A stretch of 64,000 nucleotides of DNA from Bryobacterales bacterium (lineage in GTDB: Bacteria > Acidobacteriota > Terriglobia > Bryobacterales > UBA6623), in NCBI GenBank assembly GCA_965204095.1, contig OZ241991.1, positions 2,640,290 to 2,704,289 of the forward strand. The letters are read 5' to 3'. Below the pieces are notes generated by a model, which made no database searches, had not been told where the DNA came from, and saw only the letters and a program-made list of their open reading frames with translations. Positions 14,400 through 64,000 of the stretch are shown here, piece by piece. Both the position numbers and the translations under genes were made by a program. Position 1 is the stretch's first letter. Each line of letters starts with the position of its first letter.

Positions 14400-14512
14400 C
14401 TTCGGTTTCCTCCTGCCATTTCTCTCGACCCGGGAGAAAATCTCCCAGCGCAATCGTGATCGAGGCGGGTTCCTGGATTCATCTGGTTGTTGACCAGCGT
14501 CTTCCGGACACC

Positions 14513-15319: not shown

Positions 15320-15597
15320 TGAGGCCCAGCATGCAGGAGCGGCAAATGCATGGCTGCCTTCTCATGCTCTTCAGCCATCAGGCAAATGGATATCCAGGCG
15401 GGGCCGCCGGCGCCCCGTACTCGCCGCCGGATGTCGTCCGAATCCGCTCATGACTTTGCGCTTCCCCAACATCGGGACCTCTCAAGGCTTCCCAATCTGA
15501 CATTCCGGGGACACCCCGGGGAGCATCCGAGCAGACTCATGGAGGACGAGAACGCTAAACTCGAAGTTTCGGCTTCTGCCGAATTGCCACCCCGCCA

Positions 15598-24221: not shown

Positions 24222-24707
24222 TTCCAGTTCATGATGATAGCTGAAGATCCCGAACCACATCATTTCTACGGATTTCTGCCCGGGCGTTGATCGTTGACGA
24301 GTATGAACATGGCCGAGCTGAGGTTCAGGCAATCCCACACCAGCCGACATTCCCACAAACACCACACGTTTGTGTTCGTGTTTGGGCCGGTTTTGCGGTA
24401 TAGTAGTCTGACGCCGTTATTTTTGTTGTCAGACAGGCCGCTTCCTGGCATCCTGGAAATCGTAGCGCCAAGGAGGTTGCAGCCCCGGTTGGGTGTCACA
24501 GACGACAGGCTCCTCGGTCGTTCGGAGCCCGCGAAAAGAAATCTGATTCGCCGAAAAATACAAGGAAGAACACGTCTGAACAGCGGTCCAGGACGTCAAA
24601 CAGAATAGGAACCTTGCCACCCCGGTGTAGTGGAACAGCCGGGCCATCGGCAACGTTTTGTGCTTTAGGAGCATCTAATAAGTGAGAAGCTGTGCCGGAG
24701 AACGTGC

Positions 24708-26264: not shown

Positions 26265-26351
26265 CACCCAACCGGGCGGCATTCCCGGCCGCCCGGATCC
26301 ACGATACGTCCCCGCGGCAAGCACCAGGGCGAAGAGACATCACCAGCTTAT

Positions 26352-26599
26352 CCTGCTTTTCTCAACACGTGGCGAGACAAAGTGCGTGAGAGGGCCGTCA
26401 GGACGAGGCACGAGCCGCTTGGCGCGCGCAGGCGTACTTGAACAGTACGTCGAGCACGGCAAGCAAGCGCAACGCAAGCCGCCCTTGAGCGACGGCCGTG
26501 CCGCCTGCCCAGGTTTTGGGGTCACGAAACAGGAGACACGAAACACGAATCACGGCCTTTTTTCGCGTGCTTCGGCCGTCGGGTGGTGAGAAATGCAGG
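26352..26599 (+). repeat. Hairpin repeat family, copy 4 (long variant, 248 bp, heptads 26523-26555)
   Basis: Ends cctgcttttctcaacac / ggtggtgagaaatgcagg. Its right end abuts the TAA stop (26600-26602) of the minus-strand gene. Confidence 0.9.
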
Positions 26600-27391
26600 T
26601 TATGTCCCTGTGCTTGAATAATTCGCCACTCCCCGGTTCCACAAGACGATCGCCCCGGTCAAGAAAACTGCCATCACCAGCGGCAGCAAGGCCACGTACG
26701 ACTGATACTCCATCCTCTCCAGCAATACCGTCGAGGGATAGAAGCTTGCGAATGCAAAAGGAATCACCCAACTCAACAGAAACTGCACCAGCGGGCTATA
26801 GATATTCAGTGGATAACGTCCAAACGCCAGCATGTTGTACACCGGCGGGATAATACCAACCCGATCCTCCACCCAGAACGAAACGCAAGTCAGCATCAGG
26901 AATACCGCCAGGTAGATGATCAACCCGCACAAAGCAGCAGCGCCTAGAAACGCCCAGTCTTCTGGACCGTGTCGCAAGCCCAGCTCGTTGCTGGTGTAAG
27001 CCACGATGAAAAGGCCCGTGGCGGTGTCGCTCAGCGCCTCCAATCGGAACTGCTCACTCATCACTTGAAACAAGGAGTGGACCGGCCGTAGCAGAATTCG
27101 GTCAAACTTCCCTTCGACGATGTACGACTCGCCGAAGTAATACAGATTGATGCTCACCACGTTGAAGAGTGACAGCGGGATCAGCCCGAACCCATACAAG
27201 AAGAGAATCTCGTGAAACCGCCAGCCGGCAATCTCCGGCGCGCGTTGAAACAAGATGAACACCAACGCGATGCCGAAAGCGGTCGCAATCATGGTTGTGA
27301 TGACGGAAACGACGAAGTCGCCCTTGTAGGCCAAGCGCACTTTTGCATACTGCAGAAAATACTGTCCCAGCAGTTGGAGGTAACGTCCCAT
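26600..27391 (-). CDS. ABC-2-type transporter permease-like membrane protein
   Basis: Six predicted hydrophobic spans. The N-terminus YAKVRLAYKGDFVVSVI resembles ABC-2 family permeases. No ATPase partner in the window. Confidence 0.7.
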   Translation of the reverse strand: MGRYLQLLGQYFLQYAKVRLAYKGDFVVSVITTMIATAFGIALVFILFQRAPEIAGWRFHEILFLYGFGLIPLSLFNVVSINLYYFGESYIVEGKFDRILLRPVHSLFQVMSEQFRLEALSDTATGLFIVAYTSNELGLRHGPEDWAFLGAAALCGLIIYLAVFLMLTCVSFWVEDRVGIIPPVYNMLAFGRYPLNIYSPLVQFLLSWVIPFAFASFYPSTVLLERMEYQSYVALLPLVMAVFLTGAIVLWNRGVANYSSTGT

Positions 27392-27412
27392 CCGAATCGA
27401 CTCTGATAAGAA

Positions 27413-28726
27413 CTACGTCTGATCCACGCCTCGTAGCACTTCGCCCATCTGTTCGATCACCCGATTCGTTTCCTCCTCGGTAATCACATAGGGCGGCATG
27501 AAATAGAGCACATTGCCGAGCGGCCTGAGAAGCAAACCACGTTGCAGGAACTCGCGATACAGTCGTGGTCCGATATCTGAGAGATACCCGTCATCCTCGG
27601 CCAACTCGACAATTCCCACGCCGCCGATGATGCGCACATCGTCCACGCAATTGAGTGACCTCATTGGTTCAAGCCCCTCGCGGAGCTGTTTTTCCAGAGC
27701 CGCGATTCGCTGCAGCGTGCCCTCTTCCCGAAAGATATCGAGGCTCGCCAGCCCCACGGCGCACCCCAGCGGATTCGCCGTGAACGAGTGCCCGTGAAAA
27801 AACGTCTTCGTGCGATCGTCACTCAAGAATGCTTCGTAGACGTCGTCTGTCGCAACGGTCGCAGCCAGCGGTAAATATCCTGCCGAGAGTCCCTTCGACA
27901 AGCACGCGATGTCCGGACGGACCGGTCCGTGCTCGCATGCGAACATTCGCCCGGTGCGTCCGAAACCGGTCATCACCTCGTCGGCAATCAGCAGCGTCTT
28001 GTGCTCGTCACACAGTTTTCGAACACCGCTCAAAAACTCCCGAGGCCAGACGATCATTCCGCCTGCGGCTTGCAGCATCGGCTCGACGATCACGCCGGCC
28101 ACACGTCCCTTCTCCTCCCTCAGGATCTGCTCCAGGCTGCCCAGGCAGTCGATCGCGCAGGTAGAGCGTTCCAGGCCCAAAGGGCAACGGTAGCAATAAG
28201 GCGCATCGGCCCGCGCTACACGGAACAGCAGGTCCTCGAAAGCCTTGGTAAACACCGATTCCTCGCTCACTGACATCGTTCCGACGGTGTCGCCGTGATA
28301 CGCGAACTCGAGAGAGACAAACAACCGCCGCTCTGGCTCGCCGCGATTGCTCCAGTACTGGTAGGCCATCTTCAAAGCCACCTCGACGGCCGTCGAACCA
28401 TCGTCGGAATAAAAAATCCGATGCAAGCCTTCCGGCAGAACCTCCACCAACCGCTCCGCCAGTTCCACCGCCGGCCTGTGCGTGAAGCCGGCAAAGATCA
28501 CGTGCTCGAGTTCCCGCGCCTGCCGCGCTAGCGCCTCGTTCAACTTCGGATGGCTGTGCCCATGGATATTCACCCACCAGGATGAAATCCCATCGAGGAT
28601 GCGCCGGCCGTCCTCCGTATACAGATAAATCCCTTCACCCCGCACCACCGGGATCGGTGGCGGCGCCGTCTGCATCTGCGTATACGGATGCCACAAGCGC
28701 GCAAGATCCCGATCGACCAACGTCAT
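27413..28726 (-). CDS. bioA: Adenosylmethionine-8-amino-7-oxononanoate aminotransferase
   Basis: WHPYTQM and DEVMTGFGRTG; sits in the bio operon. Confidence 0.95.
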   Translation of the reverse strand: MTLVDRDLARLWHPYTQMQTAPPPIPVVRGEGIYLYTEDGRRILDGISSWWVNIHGHSHPKLNEALARQARELEHVIFAGFTHRPAVELAERLVEVLPEGLHRIFYSDDGSTAVEVALKMAYQYWSNRGEPERRLFVSLEFAYHGDTVGTMSVSEESVFTKAFEDLLFRVARADAPYCYRCPLGLERSTCAIDCLGSLEQILREEKGRVAGVIVEPMLQAAGGMIVWPREFLSGVRKLCDEHKTLLIADEVMTGFGRTGRMFACEHGPVRPDIACLSKGLSAGYLPLAATVATDDVYEAFLSDDRTKTFFHGHSFTANPLGCAVGLASLDIFREEGTLQRIAALEKQLREGLEPMRSLNCVDDVRIIGGVGIVELAEDDGYLSDIGPRLYREFLQRGLLLRPLGNVLYFMPPYVITEEETNRVIEQMGEVLRGVDQT

Positions 28727-28764
28727 TTCAACCCTCTCGCCAACCCGGAATTCATGTCAGAAAC

Positions 28765-29433
28765 CTACTGAGCAGAATTTCTGAGAAGTGTCCCTTCCAG
28801 ATCCAAACTCGCTGCCGCCCAACTACCCACTTTCGACGCCGTCAACTCACCAAACACAGGCATCTCCCCCAGCACCACCGTGTTCCCGTAGCGCTCGATC
28901 GCCCGCCGGTTCTCCTTATTGCGCTCGCCAACCATCACGACACCCGTCACATGCAGTGAACGCGCTCGCAGAGCCTCCAGGGTCAGCAAAGTATGGTTGA
29001 TGGTCCCCAGTCCCGACCGCGCCGTCACGACTACCGGCAATCCCAGTCGCGCCATCCAATCCGTCATGAGCTCCGAGTCATTCAGTGGGACCAATACTCC
29101 CCCTGCCCCTTCGATCATCCAGGCACGATCCTTCGAAAGCCGCGACGCCATCGTTTCGAGATCCTCGATCGCGATTGTCTCGCCGGCCAGCCGGGCCGCC
29201 AGGTGCGGCGATAACGGCCGCGGAAGTCGGATGCCCTCGGTGAAGATCTCCGCTTCCGAGCAATCCCCCAACTCGCGAACGACGGCTGTGTCGTCGTCCT
29301 CCTCGATGCCGGTCTGGATCGGCTTCCAGTATCCAATCGGACCGGATCTGCGGTAACGGTGCATCAACGCGGCGTTGACGATCGTCTTACCGACACCCGT
29401 ATCCGTGCCGGTTACAAAGAGGCCGCGCGGCAT
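28765..29433 (-). CDS. bioD: Dethiobiotin synthase
   Basis: Internal start at 29433 in ORF 28765..29874. Shows [17 protein letters not shown]. Overlaps the bioF 3' end by 22 nt. Confidence 0.9.
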   Translation of the reverse strand: MPRGLFVTGTDTGVGKTIVNAALMHRYRRSGPIGYWKPIQTGIEEDDDTAVVRELGDCSEAEIFTEGIRLPRPLSPHLAARLAGETIAIEDLETMASRLSKDRAWMIEGAGGVLVPLNDSELMTDWMARLGLPVVVTARSGLGTINHTLLTLEALRARSLHVTGVVMVGERNKENRRAIERYGNTVVLGEMPVFGELTASKVGSWAAASLDLEGTLLRNSAQ

Positions 29434-38915: not shown

Positions 38916-39305
38916 CGTTCAATCGAGTTGCTCTCTCACGACAGCTCCGGATCTCAAATGGGGGTTGTTCGCCACGGGCCATCCGGGTTTTGCGTCCGGT
39001 GAACCCTAATAGCCGGTTCGGACTCCAGGATGAGCTGACCCTAACGGATCAGGCACTAGAAGCCTTTGCGGCCAGCTCAGGTTTCGGAGCCTCTTCCGGC
39101 TGCACTCTTATCCTGCCGGCGGTTTGGGCGGTTGCTGATTATCATGCCGGCCGCGCCGAAGCCCTTGATTCGCCTCCGGTCGCGTAGCCGCAATAGCAAT
39201 GCCCCGGGAACCCGGCGAAGCTGCGTCCGTGGTGGTATAGTCGATGGCTGGTTGGGCTGAGAAGCCTTTCCTCTCCCGTCTTTGTTGAGCTATCGAGACT
39301 CCCGA

Positions 39306-40454
39306 ATGTCAAAACCAGATCGTCGTCAAGTCCTCACCTCTCTCGCCGCCTTGGGTGTCGGCTCGTCCGTAATGCAGCCGCTTTTTACAGCCGCATCGGC
39401 TGCGCCGAAGTCGTCTCTCACATCCCGCATCACGCGATTCGAGATTACGCCGACGAAACTTCCCTACTACGAGCCGGTCCGTGAAGCATTGACGGGTAGT
39501 TTCCTGCTGCAGAACCGTGATCAAACCTCTTTCGACCCGACCATGGTCAAGGTTCACACCGACGATGGATTGACCGGAATCTGCAACGCCATGATGCGAA
39601 GTCCGGACAGGATCGAAGCCACCCTGAAACGAATGGTCGGCCATTCGCCTTGGGAGTATCTGCACGACGATTCTCTCGCCGGTATCCTGGTGGCAGTCTA
39701 CGATCTTGTCGGACAGGCAGCGGGTCTGCCAGTCTCGCGCCTCTTCTCGACAAATCCGAAGGAGAAGATCGTTCAGACTTGGTGGAGTCAGTGCTATCCG
39801 CCGTCATTGATGGCCGAAGAGGCAAAGCGCGGCGAGGATCTGGGTTACAAGGTGCACAAGGTCAAGGCACGTCCGTGGCAAGATCCCATCGAGCAAGCTG
39901 CCGCGATTTGCGACGTCGTCAAGCGTGATTTCCGCATTTGGGCGGACGCCAACTCCTGGTGGGGCTCAGTGGGGCGGACCATTCACTTTTGCAATCGGCT
40001 GGCACAGTTCAACAACTATTTTGCGATCGAGTCTCCCATCAGGCGGCCGGGCATCGCCGGTTATAGGGCCCTCAAGGGAAAGGTGCCGCTGCAAATGAGC
40101 GAGCACATGACGCCCGATCCGATGCCGTACATCCGCGAAGGCCTCTTGGATACCTTCGTGATCGGCGGGCCACTCGGCAAGACGCTCATCAAACGCGCTC
40201 TGATGGCCGAAGTAACCAGGATGCCGCTCTGGGTCGAGCACAGTATCGAAGACGGCATCAACCAGGTCTTTCAGGCTCACCAGGCTGCGGCGTTCCCAGG
40301 CATCGAGTACACCATCAGCATTACTCATGTGCTTGTCGACGACCTGATGAAAGAACCGTTCGCGATGAAAGATGGCTTCTACACGGTTCCCACGAAGCCG
40401 GGTCTCGGCGTGAGCCTCGACGAGGATGCGATCGACAAGTACCGAACCTCCTGA
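39306..40454 (+). CDS. Enolase-superfamily (mandelate racemase/muconate lactonising-like) protein with a Tat signal
   Basis: ORF 39282..40454. Shows MSKPDRRQVLTSLAALGVGSS (twin-arginine), then KVHKVKARPW, WADANSWW and ESP. Confidence 0.75.
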   Translation: MSKPDRRQVLTSLAALGVGSSVMQPLFTAASAAPKSSLTSRITRFEITPTKLPYYEPVREALTGSFLLQNRDQTSFDPTMVKVHTDDGLTGICNAMMRSPDRIEATLKRMVGHSPWEYLHDDSLAGILVAVYDLVGQAAGLPVSRLFSTNPKEKIVQTWWSQCYPPSLMAEEAKRGEDLGYKVHKVKARPWQDPIEQAAAICDVVKRDFRIWADANSWWGSVGRTIHFCNRLAQFNNYFAIESPIRRPGIAGYRALKGKVPLQMSEHMTPDPMPYIREGLLDTFVIGGPLGKTLIKRALMAEVTRMPLWVEHSIEDGINQVFQAHQAAAFPGIEYTISITHVLVDDLMKEPFAMKDGFYTVPTKPGLGVSLDEDAIDKYRTS

Positions 40455-40497
40455 TGCGAAACATCTTCCTGATCAAGCGGCGTTGACAACGATCCGA

Positions 40498-40658
40498 ACG
40501 TTTCCCGCTTGAATGATCCGCACACGGGCGGAGGAAGAAGGCGCGCGCAGGCGCACTTGAACCGTACGTCGAGCACGGCATGCAAGCGTTGCGAAGGAAA
40601 AGCGAAGTCATGGCGGTCGTATCGCGTGCTTCGGCCGTCGGGTGGTGAGAAATGCAGG
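40498..40658 (+). repeat. Hairpin repeat family, copy 6 (left arm replaced by the GTTTCCCGCTTGAATGATCCGCAC module)
   Basis: From gggcggaggaagaaggcgcgcgcagg onward it is colinear with the consensus to ggtggtgagaaatgcagg. Confidence 0.85.
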
Positions 40659-40682
40659 ATAGGTTCTGATACCATCTCCCGC

Positions 40683-41906
40683 ATGAATAACGCTCTTGTC
40701 GCCTCGGCAGGCTTGTCCTTGCTGTTCCTCTTGTCTTGCTCGCCCGCCACGGATAAACGCGCAGAAACAGCCGCGACGCAGCCGACGGGCGACTTCCACA
40801 CCGACTCCTTCGTGATGGACTCTCATGTCCATGTCATGAGCCGGCAGCTCCTCGAAGGCACCGATTTCGGCGACCGTTATGAAGACGGGCACGTCGACTT
40901 GCCGCGGACGATCGAGGGCGGTGTCGACGCGATGTTCTTCTCGATCTATACGCCCGAGCCTTACTACCCGAATCGGCACGACGTGAAAAGCACGCTTCGA
41001 CTCGTCGAGTTGGCCCGGCAGCAAATCGAGAGGAACAACGACAGGATCGATCTCGCCCTCAATGCGACCGACATAGAGCGAATCACCTCTGACGGCAAGG
41101 TGGCGGCCTTCATGGACCTCGAAGGCCCTTTCGATCTCGACGGCGACCTCCTGGTGCTCGCCGGACTCTATCGCCTGGGACTGCGGTCGTTTCAGCTCAC
41201 GGCTCATAATTTCACCAGCAACATCGTCGACTCATGCTGCGATGTCAGCAAATGGGGCGGCCTGAACGAACGGGGCCGCGCCGTCGTGAAAGAAGCAAAT
41301 CGCCTCGGCATGATCATCAACGTGGCGCACGCCTCCGAAGAGACCATTCAGCAAACGGTCGAGCTCAGCGAGGATCCCGTGATTTACACCCACGGTGGCT
41401 TCCGCCATTTTGTCGATATCCCTCGCTGCATCAGCGACGCGGCCGCCAAAGCGATTGCGGCCAAGGGCGGCGTCATCTCGATCCAATGGGGCAGCACGTT
41501 CAACAACCCCAAATACTTCGACTGGAAGCACAAGGGCATCCCGATCGTGTACGACATCTCGAAGAGACTCGGCAAATACGCCGATATGACAATCGGCGAG
41601 ATCGACGCCGAGGAACGGTCACGCCTGCCCTTCGTCTTCAAGGGGACCATACCTGACGAATATTGGATGGGAGCGGATCAGCTCGCCAAGGTCGTCGACT
41701 ACGGAGTGCAGCTCGTCGGCGAAGACCACATCGGCCTCGGCTCCGACTTCGATGGCGGACCGCCGCTGCCCCGCGAAATCAAAGACATCAGTGACTACCC
41801 CGAAATGACCAAAGCCCTGCAACGTCTCGGATACGGCGAAGAGCGCATCCGCAAAATCCTCGGCCTGAATCTGCTGCGCGTCATTCGTGAAGTGACTGAA
41901 AAGTAG
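40683..41906 (+). CDS. Membrane dipeptidase (peptidase M19 family) lipoprotein
   Basis: Internal start at 40683 in ORF 40509..41906. Shows lipobox LLSC, DSHVH and IGLGSDFDGG. Confidence 0.85.
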   Translation: MNNALVASAGLSLLFLLSCSPATDKRAETAATQPTGDFHTDSFVMDSHVHVMSRQLLEGTDFGDRYEDGHVDLPRTIEGGVDAMFFSIYTPEPYYPNRHDVKSTLRLVELARQQIERNNDRIDLALNATDIERITSDGKVAAFMDLEGPFDLDGDLLVLAGLYRLGLRSFQLTAHNFTSNIVDSCCDVSKWGGLNERGRAVVKEANRLGMIINVAHASEETIQQTVELSEDPVIYTHGGFRHFVDIPRCISDAAAKAIAAKGGVISIQWGSTFNNPKYFDWKHKGIPIVYDISKRLGKYADMTIGEIDAEERSRLPFVFKGTIPDEYWMGADQLAKVVDYGVQLVGEDHIGLGSDFDGGPPLPREIKDISDYPEMTKALQRLGYGEERIRKILGLNLLRVIREVTEK

Positions 41907-42085
41907 CCTGCCGTTGCAAGCAAGCTCCTGACGACTGCTTTGAACCAATTGCTGACCCGGTCCCTGACCTCGTCGAGGTAGTCGCAGCGCTGTGGGGCAG
42001 TCTCGCCCCCAAACATCCTTTCCCCGAAGACAACCAGCACGCAACCGCGGACCCACGGGCCTCAGGGGGGCGCCGGTCCTGCTGC

Positions 42086-54174: not shown

Positions 54175-55932
54175 ATGATGCAATCCAATACCGGGAATCT
54201 TACCCAGGAAGTCCGTTACGAGCCGGACGAGAAGCCCCCGCCCTTGCTTTCCATGGGGCTCGGTTTGCAGTACGCTACGCTGACGGTCGCCAGCATCGTG
54301 CTGACGCCCGCGATCCTGGTTGGGGCTGTCGGAGGAGATGAGGCGTATCTGTCATGGGTCTTGTTTGCCGCGCTTGTGGTCAGCGGGGTGACCACGGTGA
54401 TCCAGTCCGCTCGCATCGGTCGCATCGGCTCCGGCTACCTCCTGCTCATGGGGAGCAGCAGCGCCTTTCTCGCCATCTGCGTCACGGCCCTCGAACGGGG
54501 CGGCGGGGGGCTGATGGCGAACCTGATCATCGTCTCGGGCTTGTGTCAGTTCATTCTCGCGGCGAAGCTCTCGCTGTTCCGGAAAATCTTCACGCCGACC
54601 GTGGCGGGAACCGTGCTGATGCTGATTCCGGTCACGCTCGCGCCGATCATCTTTCGCAAGCTGAATGATGTGCCGCCTGACGCCGCCTCCGACGCCGCCC
54701 CGGTCACGGCGGGCCTGACCCTGGCGGTGATAGCCGCGATCACACTCCGTGCCGGCGGCGCCTGGAGACTCTGGGCCGCGGCCCTGGGGATCGTTGTGGG
54801 CAGTGCGGTCGGCGGCTTCTTCTACGGGATCTACGACACCTCGCGTGTCATCGAGGCTGCCTGGATCGGCTGGCCGCAGCTTGCTTGGCCGGGCCTCGAC
54901 CTCGGCTTCGGTCCCGACTTCTGGGCCCTCCTGCCCGCCTTCGTGCTGGTGACGCTCGTTGGCGCCTTGGACACGATCGGAGACGGCATCGCCATCCAAC
55001 GGATTTCGTGGCGCAGGCCGCGCGCCATCGACTTCCAGTCGATCCAGGGTGCTCTCACCGCCGACAGCCTGGGCAACCTGCTCTCCGGCTTGACGGGCAC
55101 CGTTCCCAACACGACCTACGCGGCCAGCATCGCGGTCGCCGATCTCACCCGCGTGACGGCCCGCGTCGTCGGCATGTGCGTCGGGGTCATTTTCATCGTG
55201 TTGGCGTTCCTGCCCAAGCTCGTGGCCGTCATCGTTGCCATTCCCGGTCCTGTGGTCGCCGCCTACTTCATGGTGCTGGTGGCGTCCCTCTTCATCCTCG
55301 GCGTCCGGGTGCTCATGCACGACGGCCTCGACCATCGCAAGGGCTTCGCGGTGGGCTTCGCCTTCTGGCTGGGCATCGCCTTCCAGCTCGATTGGATCTT
55401 TCCCGAATACTTCCAGGGCCAGTGGAGCGATCTGCTCGGAAACAGCATGACCGTCGGTGGCCTGACCGTGATCGTTCTGACGCAGTTCGTCGAGCTGACG
55501 GGACCGCGCCCCCGGCGCCTGAAGACGGAGCTGACTCTGGAAAACTTCCCGAAGATCGACTCGTTTCTGTCCGATTTCGCCGCGCGCGGCAAGCGCACCG
55601 AGGAGATGACCGATCGACTCCGCGCCGTCGGCGAGGAGATGCTGCTCACCCTGACGAGGCCGCTGGAAGAAGGCAGAGCGCCTGCGGGGCGGCATCTCCT
55701 GCTTGTGGCGCGCAATGACGGCGACGCCGTCGAGCTCGAGTTTGCGGCCACGACCGACGACACCAATCTCGAGGATCAGTTGGCGCTCCTCAGCGAACAG
55801 GTCACCGGCCCCCCGGTCGAGCATGAGGTCTCGCTGCGGCTGATACGCCACTACGCGTCGTCCGTGCGCCACCAGCAGTTCCACGACACGGACGTCATCA
55901 CCGTCCGCGTCGGACCGACCGCCTCCATGTGA
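54175..55932 (+). CDS. NCS2-family (xanthine/uracil-type) permease with a ~150-aa C-terminal soluble extension
   Basis: About 12-14 hydrophobic spans with an NCS2-like N-terminus. After about residue 435 the sequence turns hydrophilic (ELTLENFPKIDSFLSDFAARG...). Confidence 0.8.
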   Translation: MMQSNTGNLTQEVRYEPDEKPPPLLSMGLGLQYATLTVASIVLTPAILVGAVGGDEAYLSWVLFAALVVSGVTTVIQSARIGRIGSGYLLLMGSSSAFLAICVTALERGGGGLMANLIIVSGLCQFILAAKLSLFRKIFTPTVAGTVLMLIPVTLAPIIFRKLNDVPPDAASDAAPVTAGLTLAVIAAITLRAGGAWRLWAAALGIVVGSAVGGFFYGIYDTSRVIEAAWIGWPQLAWPGLDLGFGPDFWALLPAFVLVTLVGALDTIGDGIAIQRISWRRPRAIDFQSIQGALTADSLGNLLSGLTGTVPNTTYAASIAVADLTRVTARVVGMCVGVIFIVLAFLPKLVAVIVAIPGPVVAAYFMVLVASLFILGVRVLMHDGLDHRKGFAVGFAFWLGIAFQLDWIFPEYFQGQWSDLLGNSMTVGGLTVIVLTQFVELTGPRPRRLKTELTLENFPKIDSFLSDFAARGKRTEEMTDRLRAVGEEMLLTLTRPLEEGRAPAGRHLLLVARNDGDAVELEFAATTDDTNLEDQLALLSEQVTGPPVEHEVSLRLIRHYASSVRHQQFHDTDVITVRVGPTASM

Positions 55933-55948
55933 GCAACCCGGCCGCAAG

Positions 55949-56190
55949 CCTGCTTTTCTCGCCACCTGGCCAGGCGAAGTGCGCGAGAGGACCGTCAGGA
56001 CGGGGCGCGAGCCGCTGGGCGCCGGCAACACGGCCTGTGCGGTTTTTCACAAAACACGAAACACGGCCTTTCATGCCTCGGGGTTTCGCATTTCCGGTTT
56101 TTGTCTTTGCATCACGAATCACGAGACACGAGACACGAATCACGGCCTTTGTATCGTGTGCTTCGGCCGCCGGATGGCGGGAAATGCCGG
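55949..56190 (+). repeat. Hairpin repeat family, copy 10 (divergent long variant, 242 bp, heptads 56048-56066 and 56113-56145)
   Basis: Ends cctgcttttctcgccac / atggcgggaaatgccgg, with an A-U to G-C compensatory change. Its right end abuts the TAG stop (56191-56193). Confidence 0.85.
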
Positions 56191-58053
56191 CTACCCCGGA
56201 GTGTCGTAGCGCAGGTCCCAGTTGCCGAGTTTGTGCAAGGTGGCCCCCGATTGTTGGATGACGGGCTCACCGGCGCGGACCCAGTCGGCGATCTCTTCGC
56301 GATGGCCGAGCCGCCGCAGGGCTGTCCAGGAGCGGCTGTAATCGCAACGCTGGTAGCAGTCCCAGAAAAACAGGTTCTCGACCCCCGCTTGATAGAGCCC
56401 GTGGGCGCGACGGCGATAATCCTCGGGAGTCATTTGCCGCGGCAGCAGGCTCGCCGCCACCTTGCATGAAGTGCCCCTGGTGATCCGCAGGAAGTACTCG
56501 GCGGCGCCGGGGTCCACGAACGTGTCCTGACTGCTGTTCAAACTGTCGGTCGAGGTGTAGGGGATCAAGGTGTCGACCAGCCCCTCGCGGATCCACTCTT
56601 CCAGATCCATCGCGTAGTAGAGGTTGGCCTGCTCGGTGCCCATCACGATGGCCGACACCTCGAAGGGACGCTTCCGGCCTTGCCGTCGGGCCTCGTCGTC
56701 GAGCGTTTCCCGAACCTCGCGCATGAACTGCGTGAGGTACGTGGCGCGGTGCTTCAACCAGCGGGGATCGCGTTCGTCGAGCTTGCGCGCATCTTCGCCA
56801 TACTTCTCCTCGAACCCCTTTACGATGGGCTCTTCGTACTCGACGAGTGGCGGCCTGCGGTTGTAGAGCAGGCAGATGCCATCGATGGGATAGGCCGCGA
56901 TCTCGCGAAACACCGAGAGCACGTATTGCCGCACGCCCTCATAGGCATAGGAAAGACGAGGCGTGGGCTGCCCTTGCCGATTGCGTCCCCGCCACTCGGG
57001 ACGCCGGTCGTAGAGTCCCCCGGTGTTCCATTCGTCCTCGGGCACGGGGAAGTGAAAGCCCGCCACCCGATACGAAGCGTGAAACTCGAGACCGGCTTCA
57101 CGGGTATGATCCGCCGCGACACGTAGTTGGTCGATGCCTTTCTCGCGAAACACCCGGAACGATTCCGCCGCGAGCCGGTCGCGAACCCGGAAAGGGTCCT
57201 GGACCCAGTCATTTGTCGCTGGCAGACCGATCTTCGTGGGGTAGAACATCTTGTCTCCCCCGCCGGCCTCCCAATAGATCCGGGAGAAATCGGTGTCGCG
57301 GTAGGGCTCGATCTCGCGCCGGATGTCGGCCTCCGTTGACGGCCGCAACCAGCTCACGTATCCCCAGGCATCGTTGTGCGCGTACAGGCGGCGGGTGTCT
57401 TTGCGACGGCGCTCCGCCTCGAGCTGTTCGACTTCCTCGTCGGACAAGGGCGTCAATTTGACATAGGCCAGCCACAGCGGAAGGCAGGAGTTCGCCACCG
57501 ACGCTTCGTTTTCGGGGACAAGCCGGGGGCAGAACTGCCGCAGGACCAGTCCCTCGCCGGTCAGGTCGGCGGTCTTCCAGTACAGGTCGTCGATGCGGGT
57601 TCGGGTGTCGAAGGTGGTTGGGCGAATCTCGTAGTCTCTACGGCTCTGTTTCTTGCCGACAACGTCGTTGTGGGTGATGAGACTGAAGGTGGATTCGCTG
57701 TCGAGCCGCATCTCGAGCCGCGACTCGCCGTAACGCGAGCGAAGCCCGAAGTGGATCGCGTGCCAGCCCTTGCGGTTGAGGGGCAGCGTGATCTCGGGAG
57801 CGGCGGTGTTGTGCCCCGCGACGAGCATGACTCCTTCGGTCTTGTCGCTCGCATAGTCGAGCAGGCGCCAGTGGTGGCGCTTGGGCTTTCGCGAAAGAGC
57901 CTCCGACGGCCGGCATTGACTGAAGTCCGAAAGATACACCGCCCGCTCTTGCCCATAGGCTCCAGAACGAAGAGCGCCGAGTAGAGTTCCCGCCGCGAGA
58001 ACCTCCCGTCTGCTCCACAGGCCGTTTTTAGTGTGTTCGTAGTTCATTGGCAT
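56191..58053 (-). CDS. Tat-signal hypothetical protein (620 aa)
   Basis: WSRREVLAAGTLLGALRSGAYG twin-arginine signal and strong codon bias. I cannot place the family; possibly a glycoside-hydrolase-like barrel. Confidence 0.65.
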   Translation of the reverse strand: MPMNYEHTKNGLWSRREVLAAGTLLGALRSGAYGQERAVYLSDFSQCRPSEALSRKPKRHHWRLLDYASDKTEGVMLVAGHNTAAPEITLPLNRKGWHAIHFGLRSRYGESRLEMRLDSESTFSLITHNDVVGKKQSRRDYEIRPTTFDTRTRIDDLYWKTADLTGEGLVLRQFCPRLVPENEASVANSCLPLWLAYVKLTPLSDEEVEQLEAERRRKDTRRLYAHNDAWGYVSWLRPSTEADIRREIEPYRDTDFSRIYWEAGGGDKMFYPTKIGLPATNDWVQDPFRVRDRLAAESFRVFREKGIDQLRVAADHTREAGLEFHASYRVAGFHFPVPEDEWNTGGLYDRRPEWRGRNRQGQPTPRLSYAYEGVRQYVLSVFREIAAYPIDGICLLYNRRPPLVEYEEPIVKGFEEKYGEDARKLDERDPRWLKHRATYLTQFMREVRETLDDEARRQGRKRPFEVSAIVMGTEQANLYYAMDLEEWIREGLVDTLIPYTSTDSLNSSQDTFVDPGAAEYFLRITRGTSCKVAASLLPRQMTPEDYRRRAHGLYQAGVENLFFWDCYQRCDYSRSWTALRRLGHREEIADWVRAGEPVIQQSGATLHKLGNWDLRYDTPG

Positions 58054-58226
58054 GTCTCACGCGTAACCGATGAGCATATCGCGGTTACTCTTGAAAACAG
58101 TTTAGTGGCTGCTTATGTCACCGCAACATTGCTTGGCAGGAAAAGAGGCGCATGCACCTATTTCGGAAGAACGTTCCACGACGTTGCGGAAAGGATCCTT
58201 TCCGATATAACTCAGAGAAGGACGTC

Positions 58227-58268
58227 TTCCGGTAGCGGCCGGATCGGTTCATTGAGCCACAATTGACC
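58227..58268 (+). repeat. 42-bp direct repeat, left copy
   Basis: ttccggtagcggccggatcggttcattgagccacaattgacc against 60915-60956 gives 35/42 identical by my count. Confidence 0.85.
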
Positions 58269-58520
58269 GGGCCCGGATCGGCGGCGGTCCGGATCGACTC
58301 CGGGCCGGAGCTGCGGCATGCGGACAAGGCCGGACGGGTCAGGCCCGGTTCGATCACAGCTCTGGCGGTGGTTGAGACGATCGTCTCCTACACCCGTAAG
58401 GCCGGCCTGGGGAAAATCACCCCGCACGATTTCCGGAGAACATTCGCCAAGCTCGCCCACCAGGGCCGAGCGACTCAGTCTCCGATCAACGGCAAAGGTA
58501 GCCGATGTAGACTGCTATGA
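58263..58520 (+). pseudogene. Tyrosine recombinase (phage-integrase family) C-terminal fragment
   Basis: ...GKITPHDFRRTFAKLAHQGRA matches the HxLRRTFA box. It lacks the N-terminal domains and the terminal LGH...Y region. Confidence 0.7.
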
Positions 58521-58993
58521 CCGCCGCGGGAATCCACCCAAGAAAGACGGACGCCCCACAGTAAGAACCACATGGCCAGCGAGCCCCAACTGGCGAGGAA
58601 GATAATCGCCGCGACCAAACTGCCACGGTCGCTCTCGATCACGTCAACCACCATGTAGCGGAGGTCACCGAGCGATTTCATGAAGGGAGGCGGCGGGATG
58701 TGAGGAGTTGTCCGCTGAACAGTGACACCGCCGCCAAGGACCCTGTCAGAAGGCCCCACAACACGGTATCAATTAGCTGGCGGAAAAACCATAAAATTCA
58801 CTATATACACGCTATTATGATCTGAATAGTCACAAAAAGGTCACGAAAGTGTGGTACTAATACTGTGGTGGTCACCGCCGATATTAACTTTGGAGCTGAT
58901 AGCGTTTACAGAGGGTCACAGTTCTGCAAGCTCCTCACTCGCCGATCTTCACAGTCATCGATAGACAGATAGCTCAACTGAAGGAATCTCCAC

Positions 58994-60754
58994 GTGGCCT
59001 ATCAAGCAGCAGTCACGATCGCGCACACTCTCCGTCAAATTGAAAGTCACGAGATCGTGCTTCCCGCAATTCAGCGTGAGTTCGTCTGGCAGCCAGACCA
59101 GATCTACAACCTGTTCGACAGTCTTATGCAGGGGTACCCCTTCGGCACGTTCCTGTATTGGAAGGTCAAGCAAGAGCACAACGAGCGCTACCAGTTCTAC
59201 GACTTCGTCCTCCACTACCATGAGCGTGATCGGCCCCATTGCCCCAAGATTGGCGAAATGCCGAACCGCGACGTCATTGCCGTCCTGGACGGGCAACAGC
59301 GTCTCACCGCCCTCAACATCGGGATCCGAGGCTCGCTAGCGCGGAAGCTCCCGTACAAGCGCTGGAACAGTAGCGACGCGTTTCCAACCCGGTACCTCCA
59401 CCTCGACCTGCTCTGGTCTCCGACCGACGACGACGATGTCGGGATGCGCTATCGGTTCGAGTTCCTCACCCACGAACAAGCCCGTGAGCGCGACGGCTGC
59501 TGGTTCCCCGTACCGGACATCATGACCTTGGCGAACGGTGGCCCCGCCATGACCCGCTGGCTGAGCGACCGCGACCTGGGCGATCAGTCCATCGAAGCGT
59601 ATGAAGTCCTTTATCGCTTTTTCGAGGTGATTCGAAACCTGCCGCTGGTTTCCTTTTACGAAGAACAGAGCCAGGAGCTGGAGAAGGTCCTTCAGATCTT
59701 CATCCGCACCAACAGCGGCGGAACGGTCCTGTCGTACTCAGACCTGCTTCTGTCTGTCGCCGTGGCGCAGTGGACCTCCGACGCACGCGAGGAAATCCAT
59801 CAACTCGTCGACGACATCAACAAGATCGGCGCGGGCTTCGCCTTCTCCAAGGACTGGGTCCTGAAGGCTGGGCTCATGCTCAGCGACATCGGAAGTGTCG
59901 GCTTCAAGGTAGACAACTTCAATCGCGAGAACATGGGCATCCTCGAAAATCGTTGGCCCACGATCAAGGAGGCGCTGATCCTCACTGTCGAACTGGCCTC
60001 AAGCTTTGGATTCAATGGCGCAACCCTGAGAGCCGACAGCGCCCTGCTGCCGATCGCCTACTACCTGTACTCCAAACAGGTAGATGACCGCTTCCTTACC
60101 GACCAGGCCTCCGTAAGCGACCGGGAGTCAATCCGCCAGTGGTTGATCGCGAGCCTTCTCAAGCCGTCAGGTGTTTGGGGAAGTGGCCTCGACACCCTCC
60201 TCACGGCGCTACGCGAGGTCATCCGACAAGACCACGAGAGCTTTCCTGCGCTCGGAATCCGCGAAACGATGCGTTCCCGCGGGAAATCCTTGGCTTTCGA
60301 CGACGATGATATCGACGACTTGACCGAGATGCGATTCGGCGATAAACGTACCTTCTCGCTGCTGTCGCTGGTCTTTCGTCATCTGGACCTACGCCAGCAC
60401 TTTCACGTCGACCACGTCTTTCCAAGGTCCCGCTTCACCCCGGCCAAGCTACGCAATGCGGGGTTCTCCGACACCGATTCCGACCAACTGAGAGACCTCG
60501 CAGACCGCCTACCCAACCTACAACTGCTCGAAGGACACGAGAACCTGCAGAAGAGAGCCACGTTGCCGGCCGACTGGCTTCAGACATTCAGCACGCCCGA
60601 AGCACGCCTCAACTACACTGCGACCCATCTCTTGGGTGACGTGCCAGAGGACCTCGATGCCTTCGTACCCTTCTGTGAGGCAAGGAGACAGCGGCTCAAG
60701 CTCAGAATATCGAGTTTGCTTCAGGGGGCTGATAGGCCCGCCAGTCCAGAGTAG
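58994..60754 (+). CDS. DUF262 + DUF1524 protein (GmrSD-like type IV restriction / nuclease family)
   Basis: N-terminus LPAIQREFVWQPDQIYNLFDSLMQGYPFGTFLYW and LDGQQRLTAL (DUF262). C-terminus HVDHVFPRS...NLQLLEGHENLQK (DUF1524 His-Me finger). GTG start with AAGGA upstream and an AT-rich leader. Confidence 0.9.
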   Translation: MAYQAAVTIAHTLRQIESHEIVLPAIQREFVWQPDQIYNLFDSLMQGYPFGTFLYWKVKQEHNERYQFYDFVLHYHERDRPHCPKIGEMPNRDVIAVLDGQQRLTALNIGIRGSLARKLPYKRWNSSDAFPTRYLHLDLLWSPTDDDDVGMRYRFEFLTHEQARERDGCWFPVPDIMTLANGGPAMTRWLSDRDLGDQSIEAYEVLYRFFEVIRNLPLVSFYEEQSQELEKVLQIFIRTNSGGTVLSYSDLLLSVAVAQWTSDAREEIHQLVDDINKIGAGFAFSKDWVLKAGLMLSDIGSVGFKVDNFNRENMGILENRWPTIKEALILTVELASSFGFNGATLRADSALLPIAYYLYSKQVDDRFLTDQASVSDRESIRQWLIASLLKPSGVWGSGLDTLLTALREVIRQDHESFPALGIRETMRSRGKSLAFDDDDIDDLTEMRFGDKRTFSLLSLVFRHLDLRQHFHVDHVFPRSRFTPAKLRNAGFSDTDSDQLRDLADRLPNLQLLEGHENLQKRATLPADWLQTFSTPEARLNYTATHLLGDVPEDLDAFVPFCEARRQRLKLRISSLLQGADRPASPE

Positions 60755-60914
60755 ACCGGACGTGAAGCGACAAGGTTGGACAGTGACGATGGGATGCATG
60801 CGGCCACCCAAGACTACCCAACCATGCAGGTTTCGCGATGAGGAGCCCCACGCGGATTAGGGGGGGACGTCAGTTGTAACGCCTCGCCTAGGTCCATAGA
60901 TTTCTGCATACAAT

Positions 60915-60956
60915 TTCCGGTTGCGGCCGGATCGGTCAACAGCGCCACAATTGACC
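60915..60956 (+). repeat. 42-bp direct repeat, right copy
   Basis: ttccggttgcggccggatcggtcaacagcgccacaattgacc. Confidence 0.85.
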
Positions 60957-60991
60957 ACTCTGGTCTCGGAGAGGCGGTGGTAGCCGCCAGG

Positions 60992-61459
60992 TCAGTACGT
61001 GACACGTCCCGCCAGGCGCGTCCAGGCCTCGAAGGCATCGAGCGCCCCTTCGCACGGGACATGCTCTATCGGCAGTGCGCGTTCCTCGAACGGCTTCGCC
61101 AGCTCCTCGTAGATGAACTCGTCGAGGAACTCGATACTGGCCGCGTCGTGCCGGTTGACCGCAAAATAGACCCTGCCGATGCGCGACCAGTAGATCGCGC
61201 CCAGGCACATCGGGCACGGCTCGCAACTGGCGTAGATCTCGCAGCCCGACAGCTCATGTGTCGCCAGCTTGCGGCAGGCGTTCCGGATCGCCACGATCTC
61301 GGCATGGGCCGTGGGGTCCTTCGAGCGCAGCACCTCGTTCCAGCCTTCGCCGATGACCGTGTCGTCGCGGACGACCACGGCCCCGAACGGCCCGCCGTGC
61401 CCCAACTCCATACCTCTGCGGGAGAGTGCCACCGCCCGCTTCATGTGCGCCTCGTTCAT
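60992..61459 (-). CDS. Guanine-deaminase-like CDA-fold nucleoside/nucleotide deaminase
   Basis: Start at 61459 within ORF 60992..61681. Shows HAEIVAIRNA and SCEPCPMCLGAIYWS zinc motifs, plus a GuaD-like C-terminal tail. Confidence 0.85.
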   Translation of the reverse strand: MNEAHMKRAVALSRRGMELGHGGPFGAVVVRDDTVIGEGWNEVLRSKDPTAHAEIVAIRNACRKLATHELSGCEIYASCEPCPMCLGAIYWSRIGRVYFAVNRHDAASIEFLDEFIYEELAKPFEERALPIEHVPCEGALDAFEAWTRLAGRVTY

Positions 61460-61692
61460 CTTTCTATCGTGCCGGCCCGCCGCTCGAACCGGTCCGGCCT
61501 CGCATACGCCGCCTCCACCTTGTTCGGCGCCATTTGTGTCAGCGCCGCCTCGATGACCTCCCGCAGCTGGTCGCTCCGCTCGGCCGCCCAGTCCCGGAAC
61601 GACGAGCGGAAACCGTGCGCAACGGCGGGGTTCCAGTGGTCCTGGAGCATCTTCGGCAGCTCCGACATGGCGATTGGCCACGCAGCATACAC
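61456..61692 (-). pseudogene. P4-type tyrosine integrase C-terminal fragment
   Basis: HGFRSSFRDWAAE...NKVEAAYARPDRFERR is the typical integrase C-terminus. There is no N-terminal part. Its stop overlaps the deaminase ATG (ATGA). Confidence 0.75.
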
Positions 61693-61725
61693 TATTCAGG
61701 CGGCGTGAAGCGCATTTCTGCGTAG

Positions 61726-61902
61726 CCTGCTTTTCTCACCACATGGCGAGGCGAAGTGCGTGAGAGGGCCGTCAGGACGAAGCGCGAGCCGCTTGGCGCG
61801 CGCAGGCGTACTTGAACAGTACGTTGAGCACGGCAAGCAAGCGCAACGAAGTCCTGGCGGTCGTATCGTGTGCTTCGACCGTCGAGTGGTGAGAAATGCA
61901 GG
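61726..61902 (+). repeat. Hairpin repeat family, copy 11 (177 bp)
   Basis: Ends cctgcttttctcaccac / agtggtgagaaatgcagg, flanked by TAG and CTA. Confidence 0.92.
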
Positions 61903-62008
61903 CTAATCCAAGAAATACGCTTCAAGGTAAATTGGCGAAAGTGCAGCGAACCTTCGACAGTCGATGCATTCTTCAGTTCTCATCCCGCTTGCCCCCTTGG
62001 AAGCGCCT

Positions 62009-63283
62009 TCACTCCGCGATCCATGCCGGATCGATGCGCAGCAAGTCCCTCCGGTTGACGTCGATGCTTCTCTCGATGCGATGGTAGCGCAACAGGATCG
62101 AGCCGTCCCCGGTTTCGCAGAGAAACGGGTAGCGCATGTGTGCGTTCCGGAGTTCCTTCGTGGACGGTTTTGCGATCAGCTTCGAAGCGCTCCAGCTTTT
62201 GCCGTCGTCGTCCGATATCGCCGCGTGCAGGTATTGGCGTCCCGAGCGGTGAATCTCGTCGCCGGGGTAGTTCGCCCAGTCGTTCCATGACAACACCAAC
62301 CGCCCGTCCGACAACCGCAGGATGCCGGCCGGAGCGTTGGCCGCCCGGATGTCGGTCGGCGTGGAGGGTTCCCACGAGCTGCCGCCGTCCGGCGAGAACG
62401 TCTGATAGAAACGGCCGTACTGCGAGCGGAAGAGCATCCATACGCGGCCGTCGTCGAGCTCCGCCATCACCGGTTCGATGGCGCCGGGGTGCCCGAGGCC
62501 GGGACCGAGCGGGACCCGGATGTCATCGTCGCCCAATTCCCAGGTCTCCCCGTGGTCGGAGGAGAACAGGGTCAGAATGCGGTACTCGTATTCCCCGCGT
62601 TCGGCGAGATAGTTGTCGGTCGCATAGTTCGATGCGAAGAGGATGCGTCCACTGGACAGCTCGATGATCGACTCGATCACCGGCACATAGTGATGCCCCA
62701 TGTCGATGCGCTTGGGGTCCGTCCAGGTCTCGCCTCCGTCGCGGGACACGTTGTGATACAGCTCGGTAAGCCCGATCGCCGCCGGATCGCCCTTTCGGGG
62801 CAGGCCGTAATAACGCATGGCGAAAAGATGGAGCGTGTTCCGCCGATCGAGCAGCAGGTACGGCCCGACGGACTGCTCGTAACGAAACATCGTGCCGCGG
62901 CCCGCGGGGTAGGAGAACGCCGCTCTCTCCCGCGACCAGGTGCGGCCGTGGTCGTCGGAATATCGGATGTAGAGAGGCTGCTCCGGGCCCGGCCGCGGGA
63001 CCTCTCTGCGATCGCGCCCCAGGGTGTAGACCGTCACCAGCCGGTCGTCCCGCAGTTTCGCGATGTGACCGATGCGACCTTCATAGTCGATCAGGGCGGG
63101 GCCGGCGGCGGCCTCGGCGGCAACGAAACTCAGCAGGGCCAGCAGAATGAGGGTGCTTCCCCTTCTCCCCTGCCGGCGCTGCCGTTCCTCCGTCAACGAG
63201 GCCCACTCACCGCCGACGCCGCGGTATGCTCCCGCTGCCGGGAGTCTGATCTCGAACTTAGGAATCAGTGCGTCATGTCTCAT
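62009..63283 (-). CDS. BNR/Asp-box repeat (sialidase-like beta-propeller) protein
   Basis: Five Asp-boxes: SDDHGRTW, SRDGGETW, SSDHGETW, SPDGGSSW and SDDDGKSW. Start uncertain; the signal-like LILLALLSFVAAEAAAG begins about 45 aa in. Confidence 0.85.
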   Translation of the reverse strand: MRHDALIPKFEIRLPAAGAYRGVGGEWASLTEERQRRQGRRGSTLILLALLSFVAAEAAAGPALIDYEGRIGHIAKLRDDRLVTVYTLGRDRREVPRPGPEQPLYIRYSDDHGRTWSRERAAFSYPAGRGTMFRYEQSVGPYLLLDRRNTLHLFAMRYYGLPRKGDPAAIGLTELYHNVSRDGGETWTDPKRIDMGHHYVPVIESIIELSSGRILFASNYATDNYLAERGEYEYRILTLFSSDHGETWELGDDDIRVPLGPGLGHPGAIEPVMAELDDGRVWMLFRSQYGRFYQTFSPDGGSSWEPSTPTDIRAANAPAGILRLSDGRLVLSWNDWANYPGDEIHRSGRQYLHAAISDDDGKSWSASKLIAKPSTKELRNAHMRYPFLCETGDGSILLRYHRIERSIDVNRRDLLRIDPAWIAE

Positions 63284-63292
63284 CTTTTCTTA

Positions 63293-63557
63293 CCTGCATG
63301 TCTCACTACGTAGCGAGGTGATTTGCCTGCATGCTGCGGGCAGTCGTGAGAAGACCGCCAGGACGAGACGCGAGCCGCCCGCGCCGGCAACACAGCCCTG
63401 AAGGGGTTTTTAGCGAATCACGAGTCACGAATCACGCCCTTTCACGCCTCCGGATTTCGCATTTCTGGTTGTTTTGTTTTTGCATCACGAGTCGAGTCAC
63501 GAAACACGAATCACGGCCTTTCCGCGTGCTCCAGCCGTCGGGTTGTGAGAAAGGCGG
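63293..63557 (+). repeat. Hairpin repeat family, copy 12 (divergent long variant with heptads 63412-63437 and 63486-63516)
   Basis: Left end cctgcatgtctcactac, right end gggttgtgagaaaggcgg, with internal GGCAACACAGCC and heptad modules as in copy 10. Confidence 0.8.
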
Positions 63558-63693
63558 ATTAAACCCGGAAATGCTTTCAGTTTCCCCGATTCCAAGGTCC
63601 TTGTCACACGAAACACTCCCCCCGTTCAGGATCATCTTGTGTTGGACAACTCTGGGGCAGGTGGAAAGCCCTTCGGTACTATACAATCCCATT

Positions 63694-64000
63694 GTGACTA
63701 TTTCGCGGCGTGAGATCCTTGGGTCTGCCGCCGGTGCTTTGGCGGCCGCTGGAGCCTGCGGCACACGTCCGGACGTTGCAGAGAAGTCGTTTCCTCGTCA
63801 GCATGACCCGCTTGTCCATGACTTGCTGCAGATGCCCGATGCGCAGCTTGCCAAGCTCGAGCAGGGCCGCCAACACGGTCTGATCGAGTTGGCGCCGGTA
63901 AGTCTGCCACCGAATCCCGAGTCGGTTTACAACCACCGAGGTTGGCCTGTCGGGACGATGGTGGACGACACCTTGCTCGTCGTGCACCGGCACATTCCCG
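63694..64000 (+). CDS. Partial CDS (5' end) of a Tat/lipoprotein-signal protein, running off the window
   Basis: GTG at 63694, VTISRREILGSAAGALAAAGAC... and open to the window end. Not in the ORF track because it has no stop. Preferred over the minus-strand ORF 63679..63993. Confidence 0.5.
   Translation, partial: MTISRREILGSAAGALAAAGACGTRPDVAEKSFPRQHDPLVHDLLQMPDAQLAKLEQGRQHGLIELAPVSLPPNPESVYNHRGWPVGTMVDDTLLVVHRHIP

Follow-up and report, generated by a model that had tools for sequence, protein, structure and literature searches.

In a 64,000-nt stretch of contig OZ241991.1 (assembly GCA_965204095.1) from a Bryobacterales bacterium (Acidobacteriota), hereafter the window, we found a 2,730-bp module at 58227-60956 that is probably a decayed integrative element and whose only intact gene, brxU, encodes a predicted type IV restriction enzyme of the BrxU family (GmrSD type). 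We put the probability of this reading at about 0.75. It rests on sequence homology, motif conservation, purifying selection, the structure of the repeats at the module ends and the presence or absence of the gene across loci; we infer the substrate range and activity of the enzyme from homology, and the mechanism of integration is likewise a deduction. A preliminary description had outlined a low-GC decayed integrative element spanning 58054-61725, with a single-gene defence module, a deaminase gene (here guaD) and two integrase remnants, a truncated tyrosine recombinase and the tail of a P4-type integrase (here the P4 tail). The four open reading frames (ORFs) that it named are all present where it placed them, and the defence gene, its accessory status and the relics stood. 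The extent and the inclusion of the deaminase did not; the coherent unit appears to be 58227-60956.

The BrxU-family gene and its conservation

The brxU product is collinear with BrxU (7P9K) over 578 of its 586 residues, with 52.9% identity. In a phmmer search it matched the PDB entries for BrxU (7P9K/7P9M) with an E value of 3.1e-187 (residues 3-580 against 2-582), and it matched the PADLOC model HEC-05 (PDLC04151) with 715.5 bits (E 1.5e-215; residues 1-577 on model positions 20-594 of 600). In contrast, the PADLOC SspE model gave 28.8 bits over residues 21-109 only. An 818-aa DUF262 chain in the PDB (20yv) matched with E 0.15, and the Pfam model GmrSD_N (PF03235) with E 7.1e-28 (98.5 bits). 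BrxU and GmrSD themselves are 13% identical (PMC8565348). On homology, we place the window protein in the BrxU/HEC-05 clade of the GmrSD family and not in the GmrSD prototype clade. The preliminary description had proposed a GmrSD-like defence nuclease and a PADLOC search as a check; the defence assignment was borne out by that search (full HEC-05 model at 715 bits against 29 bits for SspE) and becomes more precisely a BrxU/HEC-05 homologue.

BrxU cleaves DNA carrying 5-methylcytosine (5mC), 5-hydroxymethylcytosine (5hmC) or glucosylated 5hmC (glc-5hmC) in a nucleoside triphosphate (NTP)-dependent manner (Picton et al., PMC8565348), and the substitutions S42A/D, Q101A, R102A, D474A and H475A abolish its defence (PMC8565348). 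All five of these defence-essential positions are kept in the window protein, as S43, Q102, R103, D473 and H474. S43 (BrxU S42) lies in the NLFDS motif at residues 39-43, the DGQQR motif (D99, G100, Q101, Q102 and R103) corresponds to BrxU D98-R102, and DHVFP at 473-477 corresponds to DHIYP at 474-478. The serine of the (R)LFDS motif is needed for the dimer-to-monomer switch of BrxU (PMC8565348). At BrxU R38 and N485, where alanine mutants behave like the wild type (PMC8565348), the window protein has Asn and Ala, respectively. In comparisons with five homologues, the ratio of nonsynonymous to synonymous substitution rates (dN/dS) of brxU is 0.09-0.125. Because homology is full-length, the essential residues are kept and dN/dS is about 0.1, the gene appears to encode an intact full-length BrxU-family enzyme that is under selection. 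By homology to BrxU of E. fergusonii, the protein at rest would be an intertwined dimer, and an enzyme of this kind would shield the cell from phages whose modified DNA escapes ordinary restriction.

Relatives of brxU are found in several other settings. A 13-kb plasmid-like contig (L050) carries a 95%-identical BrxU together with RepA_C, ParA/CbiA, NikA-like, ribbon-helix-helix (RHH) antitoxin and AbiTii-domain genes; its nucleotide homology to the window covers only 58908-60797 (94.8% identity). Homologues at 79-88% identity share only the ORF with the window, and three of the four are found among defence or mobile genes (P4 integrases, type I restriction-modification (RM), ZorA-like, Eco57I-like, Septu-like and Mu-like genes). 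The fourth (L047, 79%) adjoins an RND efflux pump, and no defence gene could be recognised in its vicinity. On L022, an island of about 16 kb (594-16952) between an intact P4-type integrase and tRNA-Arg holds an 88%-identical BrxU, ZorA-like, DUF4268 and Eco57I-like proteins, and, as a distinct gene product, a 241-aa protein that is 37% identical to the N-terminal (DUF262) region of BrxU. In PLSDB, 430 plasmids carry brxU homologues at 52-57% identity; a scan of IMG/VR with the BrxU protein returned no relatives.

Ends of the module and its presence at other loci

The module lies between two imperfect direct repeats of 42 nt, identical at 36 positions, that had gone unnoticed in the preliminary description. 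Within the window, the 20-mer core of the repeat is confined to these two copies, against a chance expectation of 0.03 matches. Scanning metagenomes for the same 20-mer returned 21 loci, none with homology in the flanks, and we set these aside as chance matches in GC-rich DNA. Both copies contain the 13-nt core GCCACAATTGACC, and their centres are of two types (Table 1). The chromosomal centre, CATTG, is present in the left copy, in L001 and L051 and at the L002 site; the element centre, CAAYAGC, is present in the right copy and in L021, L051, L048 and L049. A crossover within the 13-nt core would be expected to produce attL and attR sites with just this pattern.

L048/L049 (a TARA sample and a Logan assembly) also carry the module, at a locus unrelated to that of the window, with a PHP gene on one side and the rpsL operon on the other. 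There, the sequence corresponding to 58356-60955 is 93.7-94.0% identical at the nucleotide level, ends exactly at the end of the right repeat, and is accompanied by neither guaD nor the P4 tail. Since homology to L048/L049 runs to 60955 and homology to L002, which lacks the module, begins at 60942, element and chromosome overlap by 14 nt, GCGCCACAATTGAC.

The recombinase relic follows the left repeat directly. Within its ORF (58263-58520), homology to recombinases is confined to about 58269-58472; this part keeps the H-x-x-R motif (ITPHDFRRTFAKLAHQGRA) and is without box I and the LGH...Y region with the catalytic tyrosine. The fragment has seven short Phage_integrase (PF00589) homologues, and it is 81% identical in nucleotides and 64% in amino acids to a pseudo-integrase on L044, which shows the missing 3' part. 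The module contains no intact integrase gene; 68 codons are left. On L044 (6995-10906, another locus in the L002 genome), tRNA-Lys is followed by this fragmented XerC/D-like integrase, a scrap of a P4-type integrase tail, and an AAA_21/AAA_15 ATPase with an HNH protein (Septu-like), and the locus is thus another small relic in this lineage that combines an integrase with defence genes.

In the integration model that we favour, with moderate confidence, a tyrosine recombinase would have inserted the module at an attB-like site between the gene for a 620-aa GHL10 protein and guaD, and the 42-nt direct repeats would be the hybrid attL and attR sites that resulted from a crossover in the 13-nt core. 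Because the recombinase is now reduced to a 68-codon relic, the module would be stranded, or mobile only with help in trans.

We obtained the corresponding loci of relatives through the flanking GHL10 gene and exact-protein look-ups; the flanking genes of the window are 92-97% identical at the protein level to those of Bryobacterales metagenome-assembled genomes. At this site, L002, L003 and L004 lack brxU; their GHL10 proteins are 92-97% identical to that of the window. In L002, a 718-aa TPR/thioredoxin gene replaces 58213-60941, and guaD and the P4 tail come next; of the repeat, L002 retains the right part only. In L003, there are 604 bp and then a frameshifted guaD, a PIN-domain toxin gene and a DUF1330 gene (the latter two at 8127-8534 and 7189-7761). 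In L004, there is a BNR paralogue and no guaD. In L021 and L051, brxU is present at this locus, and DNA with a miniature inverted-repeat transposable element (MITE) and a HicB-like gene stands where the window has the recombinase fragment; the HicB-like antitoxin in L021 (7198-7419) has no obvious HicA. In L021, guaD and the P4 tail are duplicated (5720-6458 and 9985-10725) around the DNA with the MITE, HicB and brxU, with 93.3% identity between the two copies and an internal stop in copy A. The locus between the GHL10 gene and guaD is a hypervariable hotspot, at which close relatives carry different cargo. The switch to accessory content that the preliminary description had seen here fits the absence of brxU at the site in L002-L004 and its presence at other loci, and we did not find the segment conserved in distant relatives. 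The empty site that it had suggested seeking by synteny was not seen in clean form: brxU is missing in three relatives, but each of these carries other DNA there. L001 was considered as an empty site and rejected: its left repeat joins a MITE and then the locus ends, and because L051 has the same junction followed by HicB, brxU and guaD, L001 is uninformative about absence of the module.

Several observations weigh against a decayed integrative module carrying an active restriction enzyme. None of the relatives examined has a clean empty site, in which a single repeat copy would lie between GHL10 and guaD. The repeat copies differ most in their centre, which is odd for the overlap of a tyrosine recombinase unless the crossover took place in the 13-nt right part. 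The recombinase fragment is truncated at the identical point in the window and L048, for which simple self-integration is insufficient. The deviation in base composition is weak (see below), and no BREX, Hma or type I RM operon lies near brxU. In the protein, the match to Pfam GmrSD_C (19.6 bits) is under the 23-bit gathering threshold, and Leu and Asp stand at BrxU N519 and E528, where alanine substitutions weaken restriction in vivo and leave cleavage in vitro unaffected (PMC8565348).

Extent of the module and alternative explanations

The mean GC content (G+C, hereafter GC) of the window is 61.7% (standard deviation (SD) 2.0 for 2.73-kb windows). The variable segment 58213-60941 has 58.1% GC, the lowest 2.73-kb stretch of the window and about 1.8 SD under the mean, and GC at third codon positions (GC3) is 0.75 in brxU as compared to 0.79-0.87 in the neighbouring genes. 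The two AT-rich patches of the preliminary description were confirmed, with 51.2% GC at 58060-58260 and 42.9% at 58760-58990. The low GC stops near 60,990. Values equal to the local average or higher are found in guaD (66.0%, GC3 0.87), in the P4 tail (67.1%) and in the recombinase fragment (68.6%). The drop in composition described for 58054-61725 is real but modest, and it does not reach 61725, guaD and the P4 tail being GC-rich. Elsewhere in the window, GC is nearly as low at 26.4-29.2 kb and 23.4-26.2 kb, and the stretches 23451-29180 and 39251-41980 have 57.8-58.2%, close to the value of the islet.

The 155-aa product of guaD matches dCMP_cyt_deam_1 with E 1e-27 and, over its full length, guanine deaminase structures (Table 1). 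In contrast, it reaches 23 bits in the anti-phage dCTP deaminase model NF041025 (cut-off 400 bits), 89.7 bits in the TadA model (cut-off 150 bits) and 18.8 bits over 48 residues in the PADLOC dCTPase model; in a PADLOC scan of the GHL10, GuaD and BNR proteins, none had a significant match. By these comparisons, the guaD product is a predicted metabolic (purine-salvage) guanine deaminase and not one of the defence type. An extended, 229-aa form of the deaminase ORF was rejected: the alignment with GuaD begins at residue 2 of the 155-aa form, and the added residues come from the P4 tail read in the alternative frame. Homologues of guaD at 76-82% identity are found on several large contigs. On L052, the homologue lies beside pyrimidine-nucleoside phosphorylase in an ordinary nucleoside-salvage neighbourhood, and on L053/L054 (1473-8137) a 76%-identical guaD is flanked by IS21 (rve and IstB), a group II intron reverse transcriptase and a DDE_Tnp_1 (IS4-type) transposase. 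Since the gene has a salvage context on L052 and a transposon context on L053/L054, its location is not fixed in the clade, and guaD itself may have been relocated there by mobile elements.

The P4 tail aligns at 54% identity over 63 aa with residues 314-376 of the intact 392-aa integrase on L022, and with positions 335-383 of 413 of NCBIfam PRK09692. It is cut at both ends, as homology to L003 stops at 61473 and a MITE starts at 61723. The stop codon of its ORF overlaps the start codon of guaD (ATGA, 61456-61459); because homology to L003 breaks off 14 nt upstream of this start codon, the overlap is probably a junction artefact rather than a sign of translational coupling. Copies of guaD plus P4 tail in the window, L002 and L021 (A and B) are 92.5-95.6% identical in all pairs, with no informative pairing with brxU. 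Both integrase remnants of the preliminary description are real; the reading of them as one element did not hold. Because they belong to different families (XerC/D-like and P4-like) and lie on opposite sides of guaD, they more likely stem from separate events; in our view the P4 tail is left over from an earlier event of its own.

These data bear on the possibility that the whole of 58054-61725 is one decayed island, in which a P4-type element brought in both guaD and brxU and the integrase remnants mark its ends. Such an island would account for the P4 tail abutting guaD, with the ATGA overlap, for the loss of guaD and the P4 tail together in L004 and their duplication around the brxU module in L021, for the company of IS21, group II intron and IS4-type transposase that guaD keeps elsewhere, and for the islands with P4 integrases in which close homologues of brxU lie. 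However, the module in L048/L049 ends at 60955 with neither guaD nor the P4 tail, L002 has guaD and the P4 tail without brxU, and L003 has guaD with neither; guaD and the P4 tail are native or higher in GC, the recombinase relics are of different families, and guaD stands in a nucleoside-salvage setting on L052. We consider a single island unlikely, and the deaminase, which the preliminary description had made part of the element, has native composition, lies outside the module, is kept without brxU in L002 and L003 and matches guanine deaminase best.

Any account of how the decayed module moved has to accommodate a recombinase cut at the same point in the window and in L048. Because this truncation is found at two loci, one of three histories would apply: the module moved in trans after the recombinase was disabled, it was copied in another way, or both copies descend from a larger ancestor. 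A bolder reading, that the 2.7-kb unit is a minimal, integrase-less defence cassette moved in trans between 42-nt sites by a resident tyrosine recombinase, is distinctly unlikely in our estimate. We give it some weight because the same unit, with the same recombinase stump, is present at two loci and ends at the 42-nt repeat in both, and because sister strains hold different cargo at the same site (brxU, a TPR/thioredoxin gene or HicB-like genes). If it were true, the interval between the GHL10 gene and guaD would act, in Acidobacteriota associated with sponges or the sea, as a small site at which cassettes of defence and addiction genes are exchanged.

It is very unlikely that brxU is an old, vertically inherited resident that relatives have deleted or replaced, with the 42-nt repeat arising fortuitously or by local duplication and not as an att site. 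The nucleotide identity of brxU between the window and L021/L051 (about 92-93%) is like that of the flanks (GHL10 95%, BNR 88%), the left flank of the module varies between the recombinase fragment and MITE plus HicB, as local rearrangement would produce, and the empty site is missing. Yet the same 2.6-kb module, at about 94% nucleotide identity, ends exactly at the repeat at an unrelated locus, a 94.8%-identical copy is present on a plasmid-like contig, L002 lacks the module although its flanks are closest to those of L021, and the low chance expectation for the 20-mer core argues against a fortuitous repeat.

That the protein is an inactivated or repurposed DUF262/DUF1524 protein and not an active antiphage nuclease is highly improbable: its solitary position without a BREX, Hma or RM partner, the N519L and E528D changes, and a GTG start without a match to the promoter consensus are set against a full-length ORF with the five essential residues, a dN/dS of about 0.1, top scores in the HEC-05/BrxU models rather than in other DUF262 families, and homologues among defence genes.

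Among the other features of the region, the neighbours of the segment encode an NCS2 permease, the GHL10 protein, GuaD and a BNR protein. Within the module, a membrane ORF lies between the recombinase fragment and the region upstream of brxU. It is intact (63-102 aa) at the same position in L021 (7505-7696), L048 (2615-2884) and L051 (4635-4931); as an obligate partner of BrxU it was rejected, being absent beside the brxU homologues in L022 and L045-L047. The region upstream of brxU (58760-58993) is conserved with L021, L048 and L051, and from 58908 also on L050. A scan of the 64-kb window for tRNA and tmRNA genes found none, Rfam at permissive E values gave no match over 55800-64000, and a sigma-70 promoter scan over 58000-61800 returned no sites, with terminator-like sites at chance level.

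The MITE-like repeat that begins at 61723 (repeat copy 11 of the preliminary description) has a fold energy of -111.5 kcal/mol and belongs to a family with at least 12 copies or fragments in the window, near 10231, 12731, 21246, 26349, 32449, 35231, 40540, 42885, 47475, 50640/52600, 55947/56151 and 63345, some of them split by insertions. L021 has no copy at the position that corresponds to 61723, and all close relatives, L048 among them, have related copies. A second short repeat family, of CACGAAWCACGG-like units, is found at 56043-56150 and 63414-63521 (D1, D4, D15), nested in or adjoining MITE copies on both sides of the region.

Table 1. Features of the brxU module and of the DNA to its right (window coordinates).
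Feature	Coordinates	Strand	Description
Left repeat copy (D7-1), attL-like	58227-58268		Centre TCATTGA ('chromosomal' type); ends in the shared 13-nt core GCCACAATTGACC
ORF	58263-58520	+	85 aa
XerC/D-like tyrosine recombinase fragment	58269-58472	+	About 68 codons; NCBIfam XerA/integron integrase E 1.7e-4
Two-helix membrane ORF	58475-58759	-	Divergent from brxU; 3' end frameshifted in the window; no Pfam match
AT-rich intergenic region	58760-58993		42.9% GC; presumed divergent promoters; AAGGA 9-13 nt before the brxU GTG start
brxU (ORF)	58994-60754	+	586 aa; predicted N-terminal DUF262 NTPase (NLFDS, DGQQR) and C-terminal DUF1524 His-Me/HNH nuclease (DHVFP)
Right repeat copy (D7-2), attR-like	60915-60956		Centre CAACAGC ('element' type); same 13-nt core at 60944-60956
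guaD (ORF), GuaD-type guanine deaminase (CDA fold)	60992-61459	-	155 aa; outside the module; 1WKQ/1TIY E 1.8e-49, full length
ORF	61456-61692	-	78 aa
P4-type integrase, C-terminal internal fragment	61474-61692	-	HGFRSSFRDW...VEAAYAR; about 313 N-terminal and about 14 C-terminal residues missing
MITE-like hairpin repeat	61723-61905		183 nt; 20-nt terminal inverted repeats; inverted repeat I7

Comparison with known systems

The module and its gene open no new mechanism. They would extend the experimentally characterised BrxU clade to uncultured Bryobacterales, where the gene circulates in three settings: a tiny module with att-like ends, a plasmid-like contig, and larger islands with P4 integrases. 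They also suggest that phages carrying modified cytosines matter as a threat to bacteria of that habitat. Two over-readings are also corrected, that of the deaminase as a defence gene and that of the two integrase scraps as one element.

The deaminase resembles B. subtilis GuaD (1WKQ/1TIY) over its full length, with the HAE and PCxxC zinc motifs and a C-terminal extension as in GuaD; its relatives in databases are loosely labelled TadA or 'nucleoside deaminase'. Like small tyrosine-recombinase islands and cis-mobilisable relics that carry defence cargo, the module has a recombinase gene beside an att-like repeat, direct repeats at both ends, a single defence gene as cargo and a place in a strain-variable hotspot. 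It differs from them in that only 68 codons of the integrase are left, in the lack of a tRNA target within the window, and in its unusually small size of 2.7 kb.

The brxU product shares with Eco94GmrSD and EcoCT GmrSD the same two-domain logic, an NTP-dependent DUF262 domain and a DUF1524 His-Me nuclease for hydroxymethylcytosine (hmC) or glucosyl-hmC DNA, but is distant from them in sequence. To SspE it has weak similarity in the N-terminal DUF262 domain, with no full-length match and no sspBCD genes nearby, and it is not a member of that family. BrxU is by far the closest characterised relative: the two proteins are nearly equal in length (586 and 587 aa), have the same order of DUF262, helical linker and DUF1524, and share the LFDS, DGQQR and DHxxP motifs with all mutationally essential residues. 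In contrast to BrxU, the window gene is not part of a BREX, Hma or type I RM locus; it is solitary, on a 2.7-kb module of an Acidobacteriota chromosome. Because about 47% of residues differ (R38N, N485A, N519L and E528D among them), the range of modifications that it recognises may differ from that of BrxU. On these comparisons, brxU belongs to a kind of defence gene that is already known (BrxU/HEC-05), here in a host lineage new to it and within a variable hotspot.

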